64,000 bases of DNA from an uncultured Bacilli bacterium (GTDB lineage Bacteria; Bacillota_I; Bacilli_A; RF39; UBA660). Shown in pieces: positions 16,050-27,236 of this stretch. The notes under the pieces are model-generated. The model saw nothing but the letters and a program-made list of their open reading frames with translations, was not told the origin of the DNA and did not search any database. The position numbers and the translations under genes are program-made. Location: NCBI GenBank assembly GCA_905235065.1, contig CAJOJR010000001.1, positions 33,591 through 97,590 on the forward strand. The letters run 5' to 3'. Numbering within the stretch: position 1 is the first letter of the stretch; every line of letters starts with the position of its first letter.

Positions 16050-16331
16050 TTATTCATAAACACTTACTTGTTTTTTATCTCTACCTTTTCTTTCGAATTT
16101 AACTATTCCATCAATTTTAGCAAATAATGTATGATCTTTGCCCATTCCAGTATTTACTCCAGGATAAATTTTAGTTCCTCTTTGTCTATAAATAATAGAA
16201 CCAGCAGTAACACGTTCTCCATCACTTACTTTAGCGCCTAATCTACGACCTGCAGAATCTCTTCCGTTTTTAGTAGAACCAACACCTTTTTTAGATGCGA
16301 ATAATTGTATATTTAAATTTAAAAAATTCAT
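16050..16331 (-). CDS. rpmA: 50S ribosomal protein L27 with an N-terminal propeptide.
   Basis: It begins [12 protein letters not shown]|[14 protein letters not shown]... The Firmicutes-type 9-12 aa extension ends in the Prp cleavage motif before SKKG. Confidence 0.95.
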
Positions 16332-16332
16332 A

Positions 16333-16632
16333 TTATTCCTCCACTATTTTTATATTTTTTTTGTAACTTTCTTCAAGTTCTTTTAACATATTAACCATAT
16401 TATTTAATAACTTATTAGTAATATCATCTTTTTTTATGTTTTTAACTTTATTTTCTTTATTATAACTGATTGCATCCTTATCAAACGTAAGAATTGCATT
16501 TATTGTAGTTATATAAATCGAAGAAACCGAAGCACAAACAATATCTTTCCCATAATCATCATATAAAGCATGACCTTTAAATGATATGCTTTCTATAATA
16601 TCATTATTTTTTTTAATGCTTACTAATAACAT
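16333..16632 (-). CDS. prp: Ribosomal-processing cysteine protease Prp (YsxB/DUF464), which cleaves the L27 propeptide.
   Basis: It is a 99 aa protein located between rplU and rpmA and has a conserved His/Cys dyad (KGHA..., ...CASVS...). Confidence 0.85.
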
Positions 16633-16634
16633 AA

Positions 16635-16937
16635 TTACTTCACTTCTATTTTCTTAATAACAAGTTTAGTATATGGTTGTCTATGACCTTGAGTTTTTCT
16701 ATATTTCTTTTTAGGTTTATATTTAAAAACTCTAATTTTTTTGTTTTTACCATGTTTTAAAACTTCTGCAGTAACAGTTGCACCTTTTACATAAGGATTT
16801 CCAACCTTACCATCAACATATAAAACTTCATTAAAAGAAATTTTTTCTTTAGCTGGTACATCTAATTTTTCAACAAAAATTTCATCATTTTCATTTACTA
16901 AATATTGTTTACCACCTGTAACAAATATTGCTTTCAT
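16635..16937 (-). CDS. rplU: 50S ribosomal protein L21.
   Basis: It is 100 aa with the motif VTGGKQYLV.... Confidence 0.95.
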
Positions 16938-17062
16938 TTTTTACCTCCTTCAATCAGACTCGCCTTTAAGGTAACATATGTTTTAAAACCTTTTTAGTGC
17001 GGTTGTAGAGAAAGAATCTCAACAAACAAAATAGATTTTAACATAAAACACACTTTAAGTCA
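16938..17062 (-). promoter_or_regulatory. rplU promoter (-35 TTGACT 17057-17062; -10 TAAAAT 17035-17040) plus a roughly 95-nt structured leader (candidate L21 leader).
   Basis: There is a sigma-A-like promoter with 16-nt spacing. The leader contains the hairpin GTTG-ta-GAGA-aagaa-TCTC-AAC (17002-17023). Firmicutes rplU operons are known to carry a conserved autoregulatory leader. Confidence 0.4.
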
Positions 17063-17063
17063 A

Positions 17064-17754
17064 TCATTTAAAGTATTTATCTAGATATTCTTTTTCAGTA
17101 TAAACCCTATTGTTTTCTATAATTTTATGCTTTCTACTTCTTTTAATTTTTTCAATACTGTTTATTGACTTTCCTTTTTTAAAATTGAAATCCTTTAAAT
17201 ATCTTTCCACCAAAAATTTATTATACTTAATATTTACCATATTTGCTTCTTCCACTATTGATTTTATTAATATACATGCAAGTAATATAAATACTAATCT
17301 TTTTTCGAATGTGGCGAATAAAAATATTGAAACAAACGAAACAATAACCAGGACAATATTTGATTTTTTATATGGAAATATTTTTTCTAATATCAAAAGT
17401 AATAACTTAGATCCATCTAAAGGAATTATTGGTAAAAAATTAAAATATAATAGATTCTTGTGAAATAAATTTAATATATCAAAATTTATAGTAGATATTA
17501 AATTTATTTTATATAATACTAATAATATTAAATAAAGAATTTCCTGAAACAAAGGACCACCAATTAAAATAAATAATTCTTCTAACATAGATGAATTTAA
17601 ATTTATATTTTGTTATTCCTCCAAATGGATAAATAACTATACTTGATTCTTTATAACCTAATAAACACGCTATAAAAAGATGGCCTAATTCATGAAATAA
17701 AATTAAAAATAATAATATAAATATTTGCCTAAAATAACCTGATAAAAAGCACAA
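17064..17754 (-). pseudogene. SpoIVFB-like site-2 (M50) metalloprotease gene, interrupted by a frameshift or present as two overlapping frames.
   Basis: The N-terminal ORF (17509-17754) carries HELGH. The C-terminal ORF (17064-17588), in another frame, carries the second M50 signature ...LPIIPLDGSKLL.... The two ORFs overlap by 80 nt in an A/T homopolymer-rich stretch. The position upstream of rplU matches spoIVFB in Bacillus. Confidence 0.6.
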
Positions 17755-17794
17755 AAGAATAATTATATATGTAATATAACTTATTTGTATTTTA

Positions 17795-18358
17795 TTAAAT
17801 ATAGTTTTTATAATCTAAGAATTCTCCATTCTTTTGAAATACTAAATATAATTTATCTTTAGAAGTTGCTATTGCTGTATTTTTATTAACATAATCATAT
17901 AAGTTAACACTTATATTGTCTACGTTTCCATACCATACATCTATTCCATTACTTTGTTGAACTATAATTGTTTTACCATAATTCTCTTTTTCGCCTATGA
18001 ATACTACTATACCACTATCTATTAAATTGACACTTTCACCATCACTCATCTCAATCATAACACCATCTAAATAATTAGAATACTTTTTATATTTTATACC
18101 TTCATCATTTACTGAAATGTTTACTTCTTTAGGAAATATCTTTGATAAGAATTGATTTACTATTGAAAAATTAAAATTAGTTTCAAATAGTTCTTTTTTA
18201 ATTGCATTTTTAGTATTTGGACTTAGTTTTATAATAGATAATATTGTAAATAAAATAAAAATTGATAAAACTATTTTTAAAGAAATCTTTTTAATAAACT
18301 TACTTCTACTTTGTCCACTTTTGTTTTTCATATATTCTTCTAATGTCATTTTAATCAC
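17795..18358 (-). CDS. SpoIVFA-like membrane protein with a degenerate M23/LytM domain.
   Basis: It is 187 aa with one TM. The C-terminal region resembles an M23 fold with the catalytic His residues replaced (IIVQQSNGIDVWYGNV...). It lies directly upstream of the M50 gene, as in the spoIVFA-spoIVFB operon. Confidence 0.5.
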   Translation of the reverse strand: MIKMTLEEYMKNKSGQSRSKFIKKISLKIVLSIFILFTILSIIKLSPNTKNAIKKELFETNFNFSIVNQFLSKIFPKEVNISVNDEGIKYKKYSNYLDGVMIEMSDGESVNLIDSGIVVFIGEKENYGKTIIVQQSNGIDVWYGNVDNISVNLYDYVNKNTAIATSKDKLYLVFQKNGEFLDYKNYI

Positions 18359-20580: not shown

Positions 20581-21486
20581 ATGATTAAAATAAGAAAAAA
20601 TTTAATTACTATATTATTAATTTTAATATTAGAAATATTTATCTTATTAAATCCAGACATTTTAATAAGATACTCAAAAGATGGTTTAAATTTATTTATA
20701 AATAAATTATTTATTTCCTTGTTCCCTTTTTTTGTATTAAATAAAATTTTAATTGATTATAATTTACCGTATTATATCTCTAAATTAAAAACCAATAGCA
20801 CTACTTTATCTATAATAATTCTTTCAATGCTAAGCGGAATGCCCTCTAATGCAGAATATATAAAAGATTATCTTGAAAATGAAATTATATCTTTAGAAGA
20901 AGCAGAAAAATTATTAATAGTAACATACTTTCCTAGTCCAGTTTTTGTAATAACTGTAGTTGGATATTTAGGCTTTAATAGTGTTTTCACTGGATTTATT
21001 TTGTTATTTATCATATATTTAACCAATTTGATATTATGGGCACTTATAAAAAATAATAAAAGACTTAAAAGTAATATTTTATATATTAAAAATAATGTAA
21101 ATTTTATTGTCTCATTTAAGAAAGCTATTAGTTCGTCATTAAATTCATTAATGATTATCCTCGGAAATATAATTATTTTTTCAATTTTAATAGGAATATT
21201 AAATAAGTTTTTAAATACTAATATATACTTTGAGTCAATACTAACAAGCTTATTAGAACTTTCAAACGGAATTAAAAAAATTAGTGTTATTGGCACTAAT
21301 TTCAATATTAAATTTTCTTTATGTTTGTTTGCATTAATATTCTCTGGACTTTCAATTCACTCTCAAGTATCAAGTATATTAAGTAATTATAATATTAATT
21401 TTTTAAAAATATTTTTATATAGATTAGTAACATCTATTTTTATTTCTTGCTTTTCGTATATCGTTTTGTATTTTCTAAATCCTTAA
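20581..21486 (+). CDS. YlbJ-like sporulation integral membrane protein (nucleoside-recognition/Gate domain family).
   Basis: It is polytopic, with ...LFISLFPFFVLNKILIDYNL... and ...SGMPSNAEY... blocks like YlbJ. It neighbours the ylbL homologue. Confidence 0.5.
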   Translation: MIKIRKNLITILLILILEIFILLNPDILIRYSKDGLNLFINKLFISLFPFFVLNKILIDYNLPYYISKLKTNSTTLSIIILSMLSGMPSNAEYIKDYLENEIISLEEAEKLLIVTYFPSPVFVITVVGYLGFNSVFTGFILLFIIYLTNLILWALIKNNKRLKSNILYIKNNVNFIVSFKKAISSSLNSLMIILGNIIIFSILIGILNKFLNTNIYFESILTSLLELSNGIKKISVIGTNFNIKFSLCLFALIFSGLSIHSQVSSILSNYNINFLKIFLYRLVTSIFISCFSYIVLYFLNP

Positions 21487-22543: not shown

Positions 22544-24697
22544 TTATGGATTCTTATTTTCTTTTTCTTCTTTTATTTCTTCTTCTATCTTTTTATATTT
22601 TGGTTCTAGAGTTATCTCAACAATATTTTTAGTATCAATTTTATCGCCAGATTTTATGCTTGTTTCAATTACATAACCATAATTACTAAATTTGGTTTTC
22701 ATATTTAATAGAGAAAAATATATTTCAGCATCTGACCTTGACCAAGATTTCATGTTTGGCATTATATAATTAACCCCATTCGTTAATAAGAATACCTTAT
22801 CATTTTGACTAACTGTTGATTTGTAATCAGGATATTGCTTAATTATTTTCTCACCAGCACCAATTACAATAACTTTAATTCCTTTACTTTCTAAAAACCC
22901 TTTTGATGCATCAACATCTTTATTTATGTAATTAGGCATTTTTATTTGATTGACATCCTCTTTTTTATCAGATTTTTCTATGCCTAAATATGTTCCAGTA
23001 TCTGTTACAAGACCTCTTATTGCTTTTGGAAGTGCAGATGCATTTTGAAGTTTACTTACAGCAGCATAAACAATTACTTGTGGGTCATCCTTAGGAAACA
23101 TTCCAGCAAAACTTCTTACATAATTTGTCCCACCAACTAAATATCCACCATATTTTGAAGCAATTTGAGCAGTACCAGTTTTTCCGATTACGTCAAACCC
23201 AGCCACATCATAACTCTTACCAGTAGACATTGTTGCTCTTCCGTCAACTACTCCACGCATTAATTCTCTAATGTTTTTAACATTTTCTTCAGATGCAACT
23301 TTACCTAACTCTTCTTTTTCACTTTCATAAATAACGTCACCATTTGAATCAACTATTTTAGAAATTATGTATGGCTTTAACATTGTACCATCATTTGCGA
23401 TTACAGTTAGAGCTCTAAGCATTTGTACTGCTGTTACGCTTATACCTTGTCCAAAAGAAGCAGCAGCAATTTCAGTATTATATTTAAAATTAACTACTCC
23501 ATATTGTTCATTCGGAAGTTCAATTCCAGTTTGCTTTCCATAACCTAATGATGTATAAAAATCAAATAATTTTTGTCTTCCCAGTTTTTGAGCAAGTTTA
23601 GTGGCTGCTACATTTGATGACCCCATAAATCCTTCATCAAATGTAATAGTTCCCCATCCATAATTATTCCAATCTTTAATTCTAGCATCATCTATTTGTA
23701 TAGTACCAGATTTATAAGTTTCTTTTCCATTATATACTCCATTTTCCATCGCAGCTAAGAAACTAAATATTTTCATAGTTGATCCTGGTTCATATGTATA
23801 TGATGCAAATGGATCATAATAAGATTTTATATTTTTAGTATTTGGATCAAAATTAGGATATGATGATACTCCTAAAATTTTACCAGTCTTGGCATCCATT
23901 ACACTTATGGTTGCCCATTCTGAACCAGCCTCTTCAATTATGGACATAGCTTGTTCAGCAAATAATTGAACATTTGTGTCAACTGTCAAATAAACGTCAC
24001 TACCTTTGACTGATTCTTCAAGTATTTCAGGAGTATTAGCTATTTTATAACCATACATATCTTGTTGATACTCTCTGTATCCATTTTTACCAGTTAATAT
24101 ATCATTATATTTTAATTCTATTCCCATTTCACCAGTAATTTCATTTGTTGCTTCATCCGTTTTAGCATAACCAATAGTATATGATAAAAAATTTGATTTT
24201 GGATAATATCTTTTAATACTTTTAGAAAAACCAATTCCCGGTAAATTTAAGGCATCAATTTGCTCTTTAACAAGTTCAGTTATTCCTCTTCCGCCTGGTC
24301 CTAATTCCACTTGATAAGCATCATAATTTAAAAGCGATAGTATTCTTTCTTCACTCATATTAATAAGTGGAGACAACATTTTAGCAGTGTATTCTTTGTC
24401 AACAACATGATAAGGATGTGACATATCTTCTGTCCTTGACGGACTTAAATAAGCAATTACTGTATAACTATTAACATCTTGCGCTAACACTTCTCCTGAT
24501 GCATCATATATTGTTCCTCTTGAAGCCAAGATGGTTTCTTTTTTAGTATTTCGATTATTTGCAAAAGTAGTAAGGTTTATACCGTCCACTTTTGGACTTA
24601 ATGCAACATAAAAAAGCTTTAAAACTATTAAAGCAAATAAAAACAAAACAATTATCACAAATGGTAAATTTATTCTAACTGTTCTTGTTTTTTTCAT
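22544..24697 (-). CDS. pbpB: Penicillin-binding protein 2B / FtsI-type division transpeptidase.
   Basis: It is 717 aa with a TM, SxxK (GSTMK), SxN (SSN) and KTGTA motifs and a C-terminal PASTA-like extension. It follows ftsL in the dcw head. Confidence 0.85.
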   Translation of the reverse strand: MKKTRTVRINLPFVIIVLFLFALIVLKLFYVALSPKVDGINLTTFANNRNTKKETILASRGTIYDASGEVLAQDVNSYTVIAYLSPSRTEDMSHPYHVVDKEYTAKMLSPLINMSEERILSLLNYDAYQVELGPGGRGITELVKEQIDALNLPGIGFSKSIKRYYPKSNFLSYTIGYAKTDEATNEITGEMGIELKYNDILTGKNGYREYQQDMYGYKIANTPEILEESVKGSDVYLTVDTNVQLFAEQAMSIIEEAGSEWATISVMDAKTGKILGVSSYPNFDPNTKNIKSYYDPFASYTYEPGSTMKIFSFLAAMENGVYNGKETYKSGTIQIDDARIKDWNNYGWGTITFDEGFMGSSNVAATKLAQKLGRQKLFDFYTSLGYGKQTGIELPNEQYGVVNFKYNTEIAAASFGQGISVTAVQMLRALTVIANDGTMLKPYIISKIVDSNGDVIYESEKEELGKVASEENVKNIRELMRGVVDGRATMSTGKSYDVAGFDVIGKTGTAQIASKYGGYLVGGTNYVRSFAGMFPKDDPQVIVYAAVSKLQNASALPKAIRGLVTDTGTYLGIEKSDKKEDVNQIKMPNYINKDVDASKGFLESKGIKVIVIGAGEKIIKQYPDYKSTVSQNDKVFLLTNGVNYIMPNMKSWSRSDAEIYFSLLNMKTKFSNYGYVIETSIKSGDKIDTKNIVEITLEPKYKKIEEEIKEEKENKNP

Positions 24698-25922: not shown

Positions 25923-26340
25923 CAAATAAATGTTCTGATATCTCTGAGAATTCCTCCTCATTTGTAGTTAAGAAATCATCAAAAGATTCTTTAGCCCAAA
26001 TTTCTAGTCGTTCATTAACGCCAATTATTACACATTCATGATTCAAATTGGCGTAATGAACTAACGGTGAGGTAATACTGATTCGACCTTGTTTATCGAA
26101 TTCACAAACAGTAGCGCCGCTAAGAAAAAATCTCATAAAATTTCTAGCGTCTTTTTTGGTAAAAGGTAAAGATTTTAGTTTATTAATGATATTATTCCAC
26201 TCAGACATAGAATAAATAAATATACATTTATCTAATCCACGGGTGATAATGAATTGTTCACCTAATTCACTTCTAAACTTAGAAGGAATTATTAGTCTAC
26301 CCTTATCATCAATATTATGATGATATTCACCAATAAACAT
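25903..26340 (-). CDS. mraZ: Transcriptional regulator MraZ. The start is probably at MFIGEY, not the longer ORF-track start.
   Basis: It has MFIGEYHHNIDDKGRLIIPSKFR and a second ...DKQGRISI... repeat. The duplicated MraZ fold is characteristic. Confidence 0.9.
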   Translation of the reverse strand: MFIGEYHHNIDDKGRLIIPSKFRSELGEQFIITRGLDKCIFIYSMSEWNNIINKLKSLPFTKKDARNFMRFFLSGATVCEFDKQGRISITSPLVHYANLNHECVIIGVNERLEIWAKESFDDFLTTNEEEFSEISEHLFDGEENA

Positions 26341-26350
26341 TTCAATCCCC

Positions 26351-26380
26351 CACTTTCTACCACTTTCTACCACTGTCTAC
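26351..26380 (-). promoter_or_regulatory. MraZ operator: three direct repeats GTGGT-agaaa-GTGGT-agaaa-GTGGG at 10-bp periodicity immediately upstream of mraZ.
   Basis: The + strand reads cactttctac cactttctac cactgtctac. Read in the gene direction this is GTAGACAGTGGTAGAAAGTGGTAGAAAGTGGG. MraZ is known to bind arrays of GTG(G/T)-containing direct repeats in its own promoter region. Confidence 0.6.
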
Positions 26381-26400
26381 AATTATTTTATAACAACATA

Positions 26401-26448
26401 AAAAAAATGTAAATATTTTTTTTACATTTTTTAAAATATTTACATTTT
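26401..26448 (-). terminator. Rho-independent terminator after rpmF.
   Basis: The hairpin AAAATGTAAA-...-TTTACATTTT is followed by a T-run on the minus strand. Confidence 0.5.
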
Positions 26449-26457
26449 ATTTAAATA

Positions 26458-26691
26458 TTATTTTTTAGATTCTTTTTTATCTTCTACTTTTTCTTCTTTA
26501 CCTAAAACATCTTTTCCTTTGTAGTAACCGCAATTAGTACAAGCTCTATGAGGAGCAATAGGACTATTACAATTAGGACAAGTAGTAATAGTTGGTGCTT
26601 CTTTCTTTAAATGTGTTCTTCTTAATCTTTTTCTAGTCTTACTAATTCTTCTAGCTGGTAATGCACCAAATAATTGAATGTCTAATCTCAT
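26458..26691 (-). CDS. rpmF: 50S ribosomal protein L32 carrying an unusual 9-aa N-terminal extension (MRLDIQLFG) ahead of the canonical ALPARRISKTRKR... start.
   Basis: There is a strong RBS GGAGGA 7 nt before the ATG and no alternative in-frame start. The C-terminal part has the C-x2-C...C-x2-C zinc ribbon of L32. It follows yceD, which is the conserved arrangement. Confidence 0.85.
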   Translation of the reverse strand: MRLDIQLFGALPARRISKTRKRLRRTHLKKEAPTITTCPNCNSPIAPHRACTNCGYYKGKDVLGKEEKVEDKKESKK

Positions 26692-26693
26692 TT

Positions 26694-27236
26694 TTATTCC
26701 TCCATCTCTAATAGTTCTTTTAGATCACTTAACTTGTTACTTTTTAACTCTTCTTCACTAGTTAAGCACCATCCATCCCCTTCTGTTTTAATCTTAGCAT
26801 TATCTTTTACGACTCTACTTGGGATTTCCAAGACAATATTTTCCCACAAAATTGGTAAAATATCAAGTGTATTTGATATAATTTTATAATTTTTTTCAAA
26901 GTCATCACCAAAACCAACTTCTTCATCAATACTAATTTCAAAAGGATAATCTACATCCTCAAGTGATAAAGCACATGGCAAGACCATCGCTCCACTGACA
27001 GTTATATTTAAATTAAATACATCATCACTTAATTCTTTAATATTTCCTTTAACAGAAATTTTACTCAATTCTCTAATATCAGTATCCTTATAATATTCAT
27101 TTGGTATTGAAACAAATTCATTTATATCTATTGAACTATTTCTATTATTAATTAATGGTAATAAATCTATAATCATAACGTCAACTCCTATTAACATTAT
27201 ACTATATTTTAATATATCTTCAAGTATACTAAGCAC
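26694..27236 (-). CDS. yceD: YceD/DUF177 family protein (large-subunit ribosomal accumulation protein, upstream partner of rpmF).
   Basis: It is 180 aa, acidic, with Cys-containing C-terminal motifs. It has the conserved yceD-rpmF pairing. Confidence 0.7.
   Translation of the reverse strand: MLSILEDILKYSIMLIGVDVMIIDLLPLINNRNSSIDINEFVSIPNEYYKDTDIRELSKISVKGNIKELSDDVFNLNITVSGAMVLPCALSLEDVDYPFEISIDEEVGFGDDFEKNYKIISNTLDILPILWENIVLEIPSRVVKDNAKIKTEGDGWCLTSEEELKSNKLSDLKELLEMEE

Follow-up and report, generated by a model that had tools for sequence, protein, structure and literature searches.

A putative Prp-type propeptide on ribosomal protein bL32 in a branch of mostly uncultured gut and rumen Bacilli

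The rpmF gene and the rplU-prp-rpmA operon

The window (the whole 64 kb stretch of DNA that was analysed) has a GC content of about 25% and carries an rpmF gene roughly 10 kb from an rplU-prp-rpmA operon which, together with its L21 leader, is of the canonical Firmicute type. The features that bear on the N-terminus of the rpmF product are given below with the evidence for each; in sequences an arrow marks an established or predicted scissile bond.

26458..26691, minus strand: rpmF, pre-bL32 of the zinc-ribbon type (CPNC...CTNC), 77 aa plus stop (ORF, Pfam, alignments of solved bL32)
26668..26691, minus strand: putative Prp-type propeptide MRLDIQLF (P8-P1), rpmF codons 1-8 (74 distinct extended L32 N-termini)
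26461..26667, minus strand: predicted mature bL32, starting GALPARRISKTRKR... (short relatives; profile and PDB alignments beginning at Ala10)
26699..26703, minus strand: Shine-Dalgarno sequence GGAGG of rpmF, within the 3' end of yceD (7 nt ahead of the start codon at 26691)
26694..27236, minus strand: yceD (DUF177), co-oriented with and directly upstream of rpmF (Pfam PF02620)
16050..16331, minus strand: rpmA, pre-bL27; the propeptide is codons 1-11 (16299-16331) with a known-type site at F11↓A12 (PF01016 profile from residue 12)
16333..16632, minus strand: prp, cysteine protease Prp, 99 aa, His21/Cys33 dyad (Pfam PF04327, E 2.3e-23)
16635..16937, minus strand: rplU (bL21), which opens the rplU-prp-rpmA operon (Pfam PF00829)
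16946..17014, minus strand: L21 leader RNA, preceding the operon (Rfam RF00559; 52.2 bits, gathering score 36)

The full product of rpmF, translated from the minus-strand ORF 26458..26691, is MRLDIQLFGALPARRISKTRKRLRRTHLKKEAPTITTCPNCNSPIAPHRACTNCGYYKGKDVLGKEEKVEDKKESKK (77 aa). Its N-terminus is MRLDIQLFGALPARRISKTRKRLRR, the start reading MRLDIQLF↓GALPARR, and the peptide sequences derived from pre-L32 are MRLDIQLFGALPARR and MRLDIQLFGALPARRISK. The protein is a member of the bL32 family, as it matches the whole domain of PF01783 (Ribosomal_L32p; E 1.8e-22, 79.7 bits, cut-off 21.3), reads ALPARR from residue 10 and is encoded immediately downstream of yceD; residues 10-64 align to profile positions 1-55 of 56, and the sole departure from canonical bL32 is the presence of 8-9 additional N-terminal residues. 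Translation of rpmF cannot start earlier because the TAA stop of yceD (26694-26696) stands in frame 3 nt ahead of the rpmF ATG, and it cannot start later because no ATG, GTG or TTG is present between codon 1 and Pro12. An earlier note on this DNA had described a protein starting MRLDIQLFG with a strong ribosome-binding site and no alternative start; the GGAGG 7 nt upstream and the flanking codons agree with that description. The true start of yceD itself is probably downstream of the GTG listed for it.

Directly after the rpmF stop, an A/T-rich hairpin (AAAATGTAAATATTTT ... AAAATATTTACATTTT) followed by a T-run (26401-26448, minus strand) is probably an intrinsic terminator dividing rpmF from the mraZ promoter. 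Three 10-bp direct repeats immediately upstream of mraZ (GTAGACAGTG, GTAGAAAGTG, GTAGAAAGTG; 26351-26380, minus strand) resemble MraZ operator boxes, with AAAGTGG at 10-nt spacing; the true start of mraZ is probably the ATG at 26340 (MFIGEYHH...) rather than the mechanically listed GTG at 26373.

The Prp of the window belongs to its family by the PF04327 profile, by the His/Cys dyad with the conserved Ser, and by the position of its gene between rplU and rpmA; when aligned to S. aureus Prp (4PEO/7KLD) it keeps the catalytic residues GH(21)...DIVC(33)A..S. The L27 leader reads ...LNIQLF and is followed by ASKK. An L27 propeptide and a Prp gene at 16333-16632 in the same genome, as the earlier note had it, are thus found again, and Prp is intact both by Pfam and by alignment. 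The leaders lie outside the family domain in both ribosomal proteins, since the Pfam profiles start at Ala12 in L27 and at Ala10 in L32. When all six frames of the 64 kb were translated and searched for the strict motif L[DN][IL]Q[LF]F[AGS], exactly two matches were obtained, the N-termini of L27 and L32; composition alone would give about 0.001 matches per 20,000 residues, and the recurrence is far beyond chance. The close resemblance first pointed out between the L32 extension and the L27 propeptide therefore holds, both fitting the strict motif with no other match in the window.

Conservation of the bL32 leader and its likeness to L27 leaders

The earlier note proposed a survey of related L32 N-termini and would have taken absence from close relatives as the sign of a strain-specific artefact; this is clearly not the case, as the extension is widely conserved. 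It is present in 80 of the 120 nearest L32 clusters of a 5.8-billion-protein collection, and 74 distinct extended N-termini were obtained from the nearest clusters plus the sequences of fetched loci. Their consensus is M-[KR]-L-[DN]-[IL]-[QT]-L-F followed by GALP or AVP, and the leader pattern can be written (M)(K/R)LDIQLFGALPAR. Across the 74 forms, P8 is Met (96%), P7 Lys/Arg (85%), P6 Leu (95%), P5 Asp/Asn (96%), P4 Ile/Leu (100%), P2 Leu (88%) and P1 Phe (100%); P3 is Gln in 64% and Thr in 27%, with a few Glu, Cys and Val, and P1' is Gly in 69% and Ala in 31%.

An exhaustive HMMER search over 1.84 billion 50%-identity representatives found the leader on seven of the best 150, the divergent cores P0366 (...MMKLDIQLF↓AVPFRK), P0367 (MKLNIQLF↓AVPARRTSKTSKRTRNSH) and P0378 (MKLDIQMF↓AVPFRK) included, while most representatives are canonical; P0364 reads MKLDLQLF↓AVPARR. 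The leader is kept in L32 lineages with cores 54-62% identical. In their DNA, 21 genes for extended L32s of diverse lineages all have a GGAGG-type Shine-Dalgarno sequence 5-9 nt before the leader ATG, a start codon at the canonical position was found in none of them, and within the leader they differ by synonymous codons. On this gene-level evidence the extension is real and translated. A dependence of the leader on the adjacent yceD is ruled out, as L32 is also extended at three loci without an upstream yceD (L004, L009, L192).

Database gene calls for L32 were found to start 15-22 residues too far upstream in P0034, P0041, P0044, P0049, P0053, P0055, P0061 and P0064. These overlong calls translate the 3' end of yceD and the ribosome-binding site (for example MRKYISNAK...REGGIK-MKLDIQLF, and also MRKYISNAK...REGGIKMKLDIQLF); their true start is the leader Met. 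L32 genes in MAGs of these Bacilli are often mis-annotated.

Relatives of the window are MAGs of uncultured gut and rumen bacteria that carry the labels Bacilli, Erysipelotrichaceae, Tenericutes or Mycoplasmatota; further relatives include Clostridium sp. CAG:433, CAG:1000 and Candidatus Onthousia (Bacilli incertae sedis). It is probably because its host organisms are uncultured that the feature has so far been overlooked. Genes for a SpoIVFB-like M50 peptidase, an M23 peptidase (SpoIVFA-like) and a YlbJ-like protein flank the ribosomal operon (17064-18358, minus strand; 20581-21486, plus strand), and a PBP2B gene lies at 22544-24697; together these point to a walled, possibly sporulating organism and not a mollicute, although its relatives are often labelled Tenericutes.

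The L32 leaders were compared with 189 distinct L27 N-termini from the same broad clade. In the L27 set P6 is Leu (89%), P5 Asn/Asp (97%), P4 Ile/Leu (99%), P3 Gln (98%), P2 Leu/Phe (94%), P1 Phe (99%) and P1' Ala (100%). The two leader motifs agree with each other position by position, and both agree with the published Prp motif, MLxx(D/N)LQ(F/L)F'A(S/H)KK, in which a small P1' residue is needed (PMC9405229). The window sequence M-R-L-D-I-Q-L-F↓G-A fits (K/R)L(D/N)(I/L)Q(F/L)F plus a small residue; its P1' is Gly, compared with Ala in known substrates, and no L27 leader is as short as that of L32, which has only two residues ahead of the hexamer.

The main departure from this agreement is at P3, which is Gln in 185 of the 189 L27s and Thr in none, compared with Thr in 27% of the distinct extended L32s; the window L32 has Gln at this position (Q6). 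The Thr-P3 L32s form a whole sublineage, marked by GALPFRR...TAKRQRR. When Thr at P3 of L27 was sought with a synthetic Thr-type L27 N-terminus as bait, the search returned short fragments only, none of them with Thr. Gln at P3 is reported to be required by S. aureus Prp, the one Prp for which the requirement is known, as pre-L27 with Gln changed to Ala or Glu is uncut (PMC9261936); Prps are also said to act with high specificity on their own L27 (PMC9261936, PMC9405229). In the Thr-P3 lineage Prp may tolerate Thr, L32 may be processed more slowly, or another enzyme may act.

A rare Cys at P3 occurs in both families (L27: P0146, P0159, L101; L32: P0027, P0050, L105). The Cys-P3 L27s (MNRMILNICLF↓ASKK; L011-L020, L101) are paired with a Prp whose mobile loop is GHANYREDNDIVC, the YGKDIVC of other loops being changed to EDNDIVC; the change alters the counterpart of S. 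aureus Gly29, a residue that forms a hydrogen bond with the P3 Gln (PMC9261936). This looks like co-variation of enzyme and substrate at a residue that contacts P3 in the S. aureus structure. Variation at P2 was also observed. L27 leaders with Arg at P2, ...IQRF↓AH or ...LQRF↓AH (L130, L131, L133, L134, L157, L165, L168), occur in gut Bacilli such as Clostridium sp. CAG:433 and are an undescribed natural variant of the L27 site, the published Prp motif having Phe or Leu at this position. The L32 of L180 (JAVXDN010000021.1) has Gln at P2, MKMIIDLQQF↓AVPFRR, and an L27 fragment (P0353) reads ...LNLQQF↓ASKK; no link was found between the two.

Because co-evolution is reported for Prp and its L27 leader (PMC9405229), pairs of L27 and L32 from the same genome were sought. 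Pairs were linked through concatenated L32+Prp queries to a locus finder, which uses the least degenerate 8-mer in each sixth of the query, and through accession and contig identities. Six pairs were linked, five of them close relatives in the family of the window: the window itself, JAEEGL011246511.1, CAMVPB010000004.1, CAYNFP010000001.1 and CAZLNV010000005.1, the same-genome link being a deduced one for the last two. In these five the L27 reads ...LNIQLF↓AS and the L32 M(R/K)LDIQLF↓GA. The sixth pair, from a distant MAG, has identical hexamers in its L32 (MBQ3142515.1, MKVELNLQLF↓GPLP) and its L27 (MBQ3142581.1, MNRVILNLQLF↓ASKK); it was linked by proximity of accession numbers, an approach that worked for one MAG only. 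The partners agree at P6, P4, P3, P2 and P1 in all six pairs (P4 is Ile in five and Leu in one); with five of the six being close relatives, this agreement is consistent with a shared protease but is thin evidence for it. [quoted passage not shown]

Synteny of the L27 and L32 loci holds in the family of the window only and is lost in more distant genomes, and the concatenated L32+Prp query of genome contigs gave a single new same-assembly pair (CAMVPB01) among the matches listed. No same-genome case of a Cys-P3 L32 with a Cys-P3 L27 was found, the sequences coming from different assemblies or samples that have the ENA series alone in common. Likewise, no pair of a Thr-P3 L32 with the L27 and Prp of its own genome was found, the NCBI records of the Thr type being deposited metagenomes; P0022 (CAYFQM01) and P0085 (CANRKW01) come from assemblies outside those whose L27 was sampled.

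Predicted cleavage of pre-bL32

The Prp site in L27 is experimentally established as F↓A (PMC12324487, PMC9405229), and in S. pneumoniae the F12A substitution abolishes both binding and cleavage (PMC12324487); the inhibitor peptide Ac-KLNLQFF is sufficient for binding (PMC9261936). Measured against the established site, the earlier note set its cuts (LFA↓S in L27, LFG↓A in L32) one residue too far, and the scissile bond of L32 is most likely F8↓G9, not G9↓A10. The site is placed there because the Phe is invariant and is followed by Gly or Ala, and because the Ala class, ...QLF↓AVP(A/F)RR, yields AVPxRR, which is the ordinary L32 N-terminus after Met removal. Two leaderless relatives (P0082, P0092) start MGALPARRISKTRKRIRRTHLKK, the MGALPARR form, with the initiator Met at the position of Phe8; GALPARR is therefore considered to be a natural mature N-terminus. 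Other short relatives start MAVPFRR, so that in both classes the predicted cleavage exposes the canonical N-terminus (F↓AVPxRR and F↓GALPxRR, compared with MAVPFRR and MGALPARR). The 33 distinct bL32 sequences of solved ribosome structures all align from residue 10 or 11 of the window L32 onward, and a search for additional N-terminal residues among them found none.

It is proposed that bL32 is made as a precursor, the first eight residues of which, M-R-L-D-I-Q-L-F, would be a minimal Prp recognition sequence. Prp, which removes the bL27 leader, would also cut pre-bL32 between Phe8 and Gly9, and the product GALPARR... would be the equivalent of the ordinary bL32 N-terminus after methionine removal. 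Only in clipped bL32 would the N-terminal tail pass into the 23S rRNA core beside uL22, bL17 and bL20; one protease would in this way license the incorporation of two large-subunit proteins in this clade. That Prp cleaves L32 at F8↓G9 is given a probability of about 0.65. The idea that L32 is a second Prp substrate, put forward in the earlier note, is partly supported by the conserved leader, the motif match, the invariant P1 Phe, the canonical junction, the intact Prp and the six pairs; the cleavage position given there is most likely wrong, and the Thr at P3 in about a quarter of the forms weighs against the idea. Full-text literature searches found no paper tying L32 or rpmF to Prp.

Structural data place the N-terminal segment of bL32 deep in the subunit, packed against bL20 (PMC4881015), and the entry of bL32 with uL22 gates the folding of H61/domain IV and the binding of uL2 (PMC11723945). 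Because this segment lies so deep, because bL32/uL22 entry gates folding, and because no solved bL32 has an N-terminal extension, we infer that an unprocessed leader would block assembly.

The variation at P3 leaves some room for a different reading, in which the leader is cut by another protease, or is bound by Prp acting as a chaperone or checkpoint without cutting, and the likeness to L27 reflects a shared assembly or chaperone signal. Thr, Glu and Val at P3 conflict with the Gln requirement of S. aureus Prp (PMC9261936); S. pneumoniae has a second protease able to process L27 (PMC12324487; 10.64898/2026.08.10.744006), and a chaperone role has already been proposed for Prp (PMC9405229, section 3.3.2). 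This reading is nevertheless considered unlikely, as the P1 Phe never varies, only small residues stand at P1' and the junction coincides exactly with the canonical N-terminus, which are hallmarks of catalytic specificity beyond mere binding; binding without cutting is further opposed by wild-type S. pneumoniae Prp, which cuts its L27 substrate rapidly and then leaves (PMC12324487).

Lineage-specific extensions of ribosomal proteins are common, and the leader could be one of these, retained in the mature ribosome as an addition to bL32 with a likeness to L27 that is convergent or inherited without function. However, the hydrophobic L-D-I-Q-L-F is unlike typical basic rRNA-binding extensions, and it matches the protease site at seven consecutive positions while abutting the canonical N-terminus without a linker. 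The Met of the leaderless P0082 and P0092 stands exactly at the junction, none of the 33 solved bL32 sequences has extra N-terminal residues, and the mitochondrial homologue assembles only after its N-terminal region is removed (PMC5438985); retention is quite improbable. An artefact, whether a mis-called start or a recent neutral DNA copy of the rpmA 5' end, is barely credible and is effectively refuted by the sequence data: many database calls for these L32s do start too far upstream, which makes automated annotation unreliable for these genes, but a mis-called rpmF start is rejected on the yceD stop 3 nt upstream, the absence of in-frame start codons from codon 1 to Pro12 and the optimal Shine-Dalgarno spacing in 21 genes, a recent copy is rejected on the differing leader codons of L27 and L32 (ATA/ATT, TTC/TTT), and the leader is conserved across L32 cores only 54-62% identical.

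Cleavage of pre-bL32 by Prp would have a wider form, which is held at slightly better than even odds: in a sizeable branch of mostly uncultured gut and rumen Bacilli, Prp would have more than a single substrate and would be a dedicated pro-ribosomal-protein convertase. It would license two or more proteins of the large subunit, among them bL27 (at the peptidyl transferase centre) and bL32 (at the uL22/domain IV junction), and proteolytic activation would be a general 50S checkpoint. The leader would have been grafted at the mature bL32 N-terminus, possibly more than once, and the Thr-P3 lineage would have a Prp of relaxed or altered specificity.

Relation to known systems

The closest known system is that of bL27 and Prp, described for S. 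aureus, B. subtilis and S. pneumoniae and present in Firmicutes and some other phyla. In B. subtilis, whose L27 leader reads LDLQFF, prp goes by the name ysxB. Both leaders are short, are carried by a small 50S protein and share the core [KR]-L-[DN]-[IL]-Q-[LF]-F followed by a small residue, with a cut that would expose the canonical N-terminus. Unlike bL27, bL32 has an N-terminus that stops short of the peptidyl transferase centre; from P1' onward L32 has Gly or Ala and then A-L-P or V-P, whereas L27 has A-(S/H)-K-K, and L32, as a putative substrate, has a minimal leader of 8 residues, Thr at P3 in a quarter of the forms and a gene unlinked to prp. The purpose of the removable leader on Firmicute bL27 is, to our knowledge, unexplained; this leader is essential in S. 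aureus and dispensable in S. pneumoniae. A second ribosomal protein with an independently acquired leader, at a different site of the 50S subunit, argues for a general leader role; the leader might slow, chaperone or quality-control protein tails on their way into the rRNA core, and its role would not be tied to the peptidyl transferase centre. Close relatives that differ in having extended or short L32 provide a natural comparative experiment.

Prp also acts outside the ribosome. It cuts the scaffold and capsid proteins gp46 and gp47 of phage 80alpha, and FlhB of B. subtilis and GtfB/GtfC of S. mutans have been proposed as substrates (PMC9405229, PMC12324487). Like L32, these are non-L27 proteins with a sequence resembling the L27 leader, cut or suggested to be cut, so the motif is portable; they are phage, flagellar and secreted-enzyme proteins, none of them ribosomal, and only the phage ones are established. 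In L32, by comparison, the motif is carried by a second core ribosomal protein and is conserved in many lineages.

A further parallel exists in the same ribosomal protein family, as the m-AAA protease removes the N-terminal region of MrpL32, the mitochondrial bL32, before it enters the large subunit (PMC5438985). Both cases would place ribosome assembly under protease control, and the L32 leader in this sense parallels the protease-gated maturation of mitochondrial bL32. The mitochondrial system differs in that it is organellar, the presequence has 71 residues and the protease is ATP-dependent, processive and unrelated to Prp; the MrpL32 site is set by structure and not by sequence, because the m-AAA protease stops at the folded zinc domain. 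The natural variants of the L32 and L27 leaders (Thr, Cys and Glu at P3; Gly at P1') would map the subsite tolerance of Prp, and this bears on its use as an antibiotic target.
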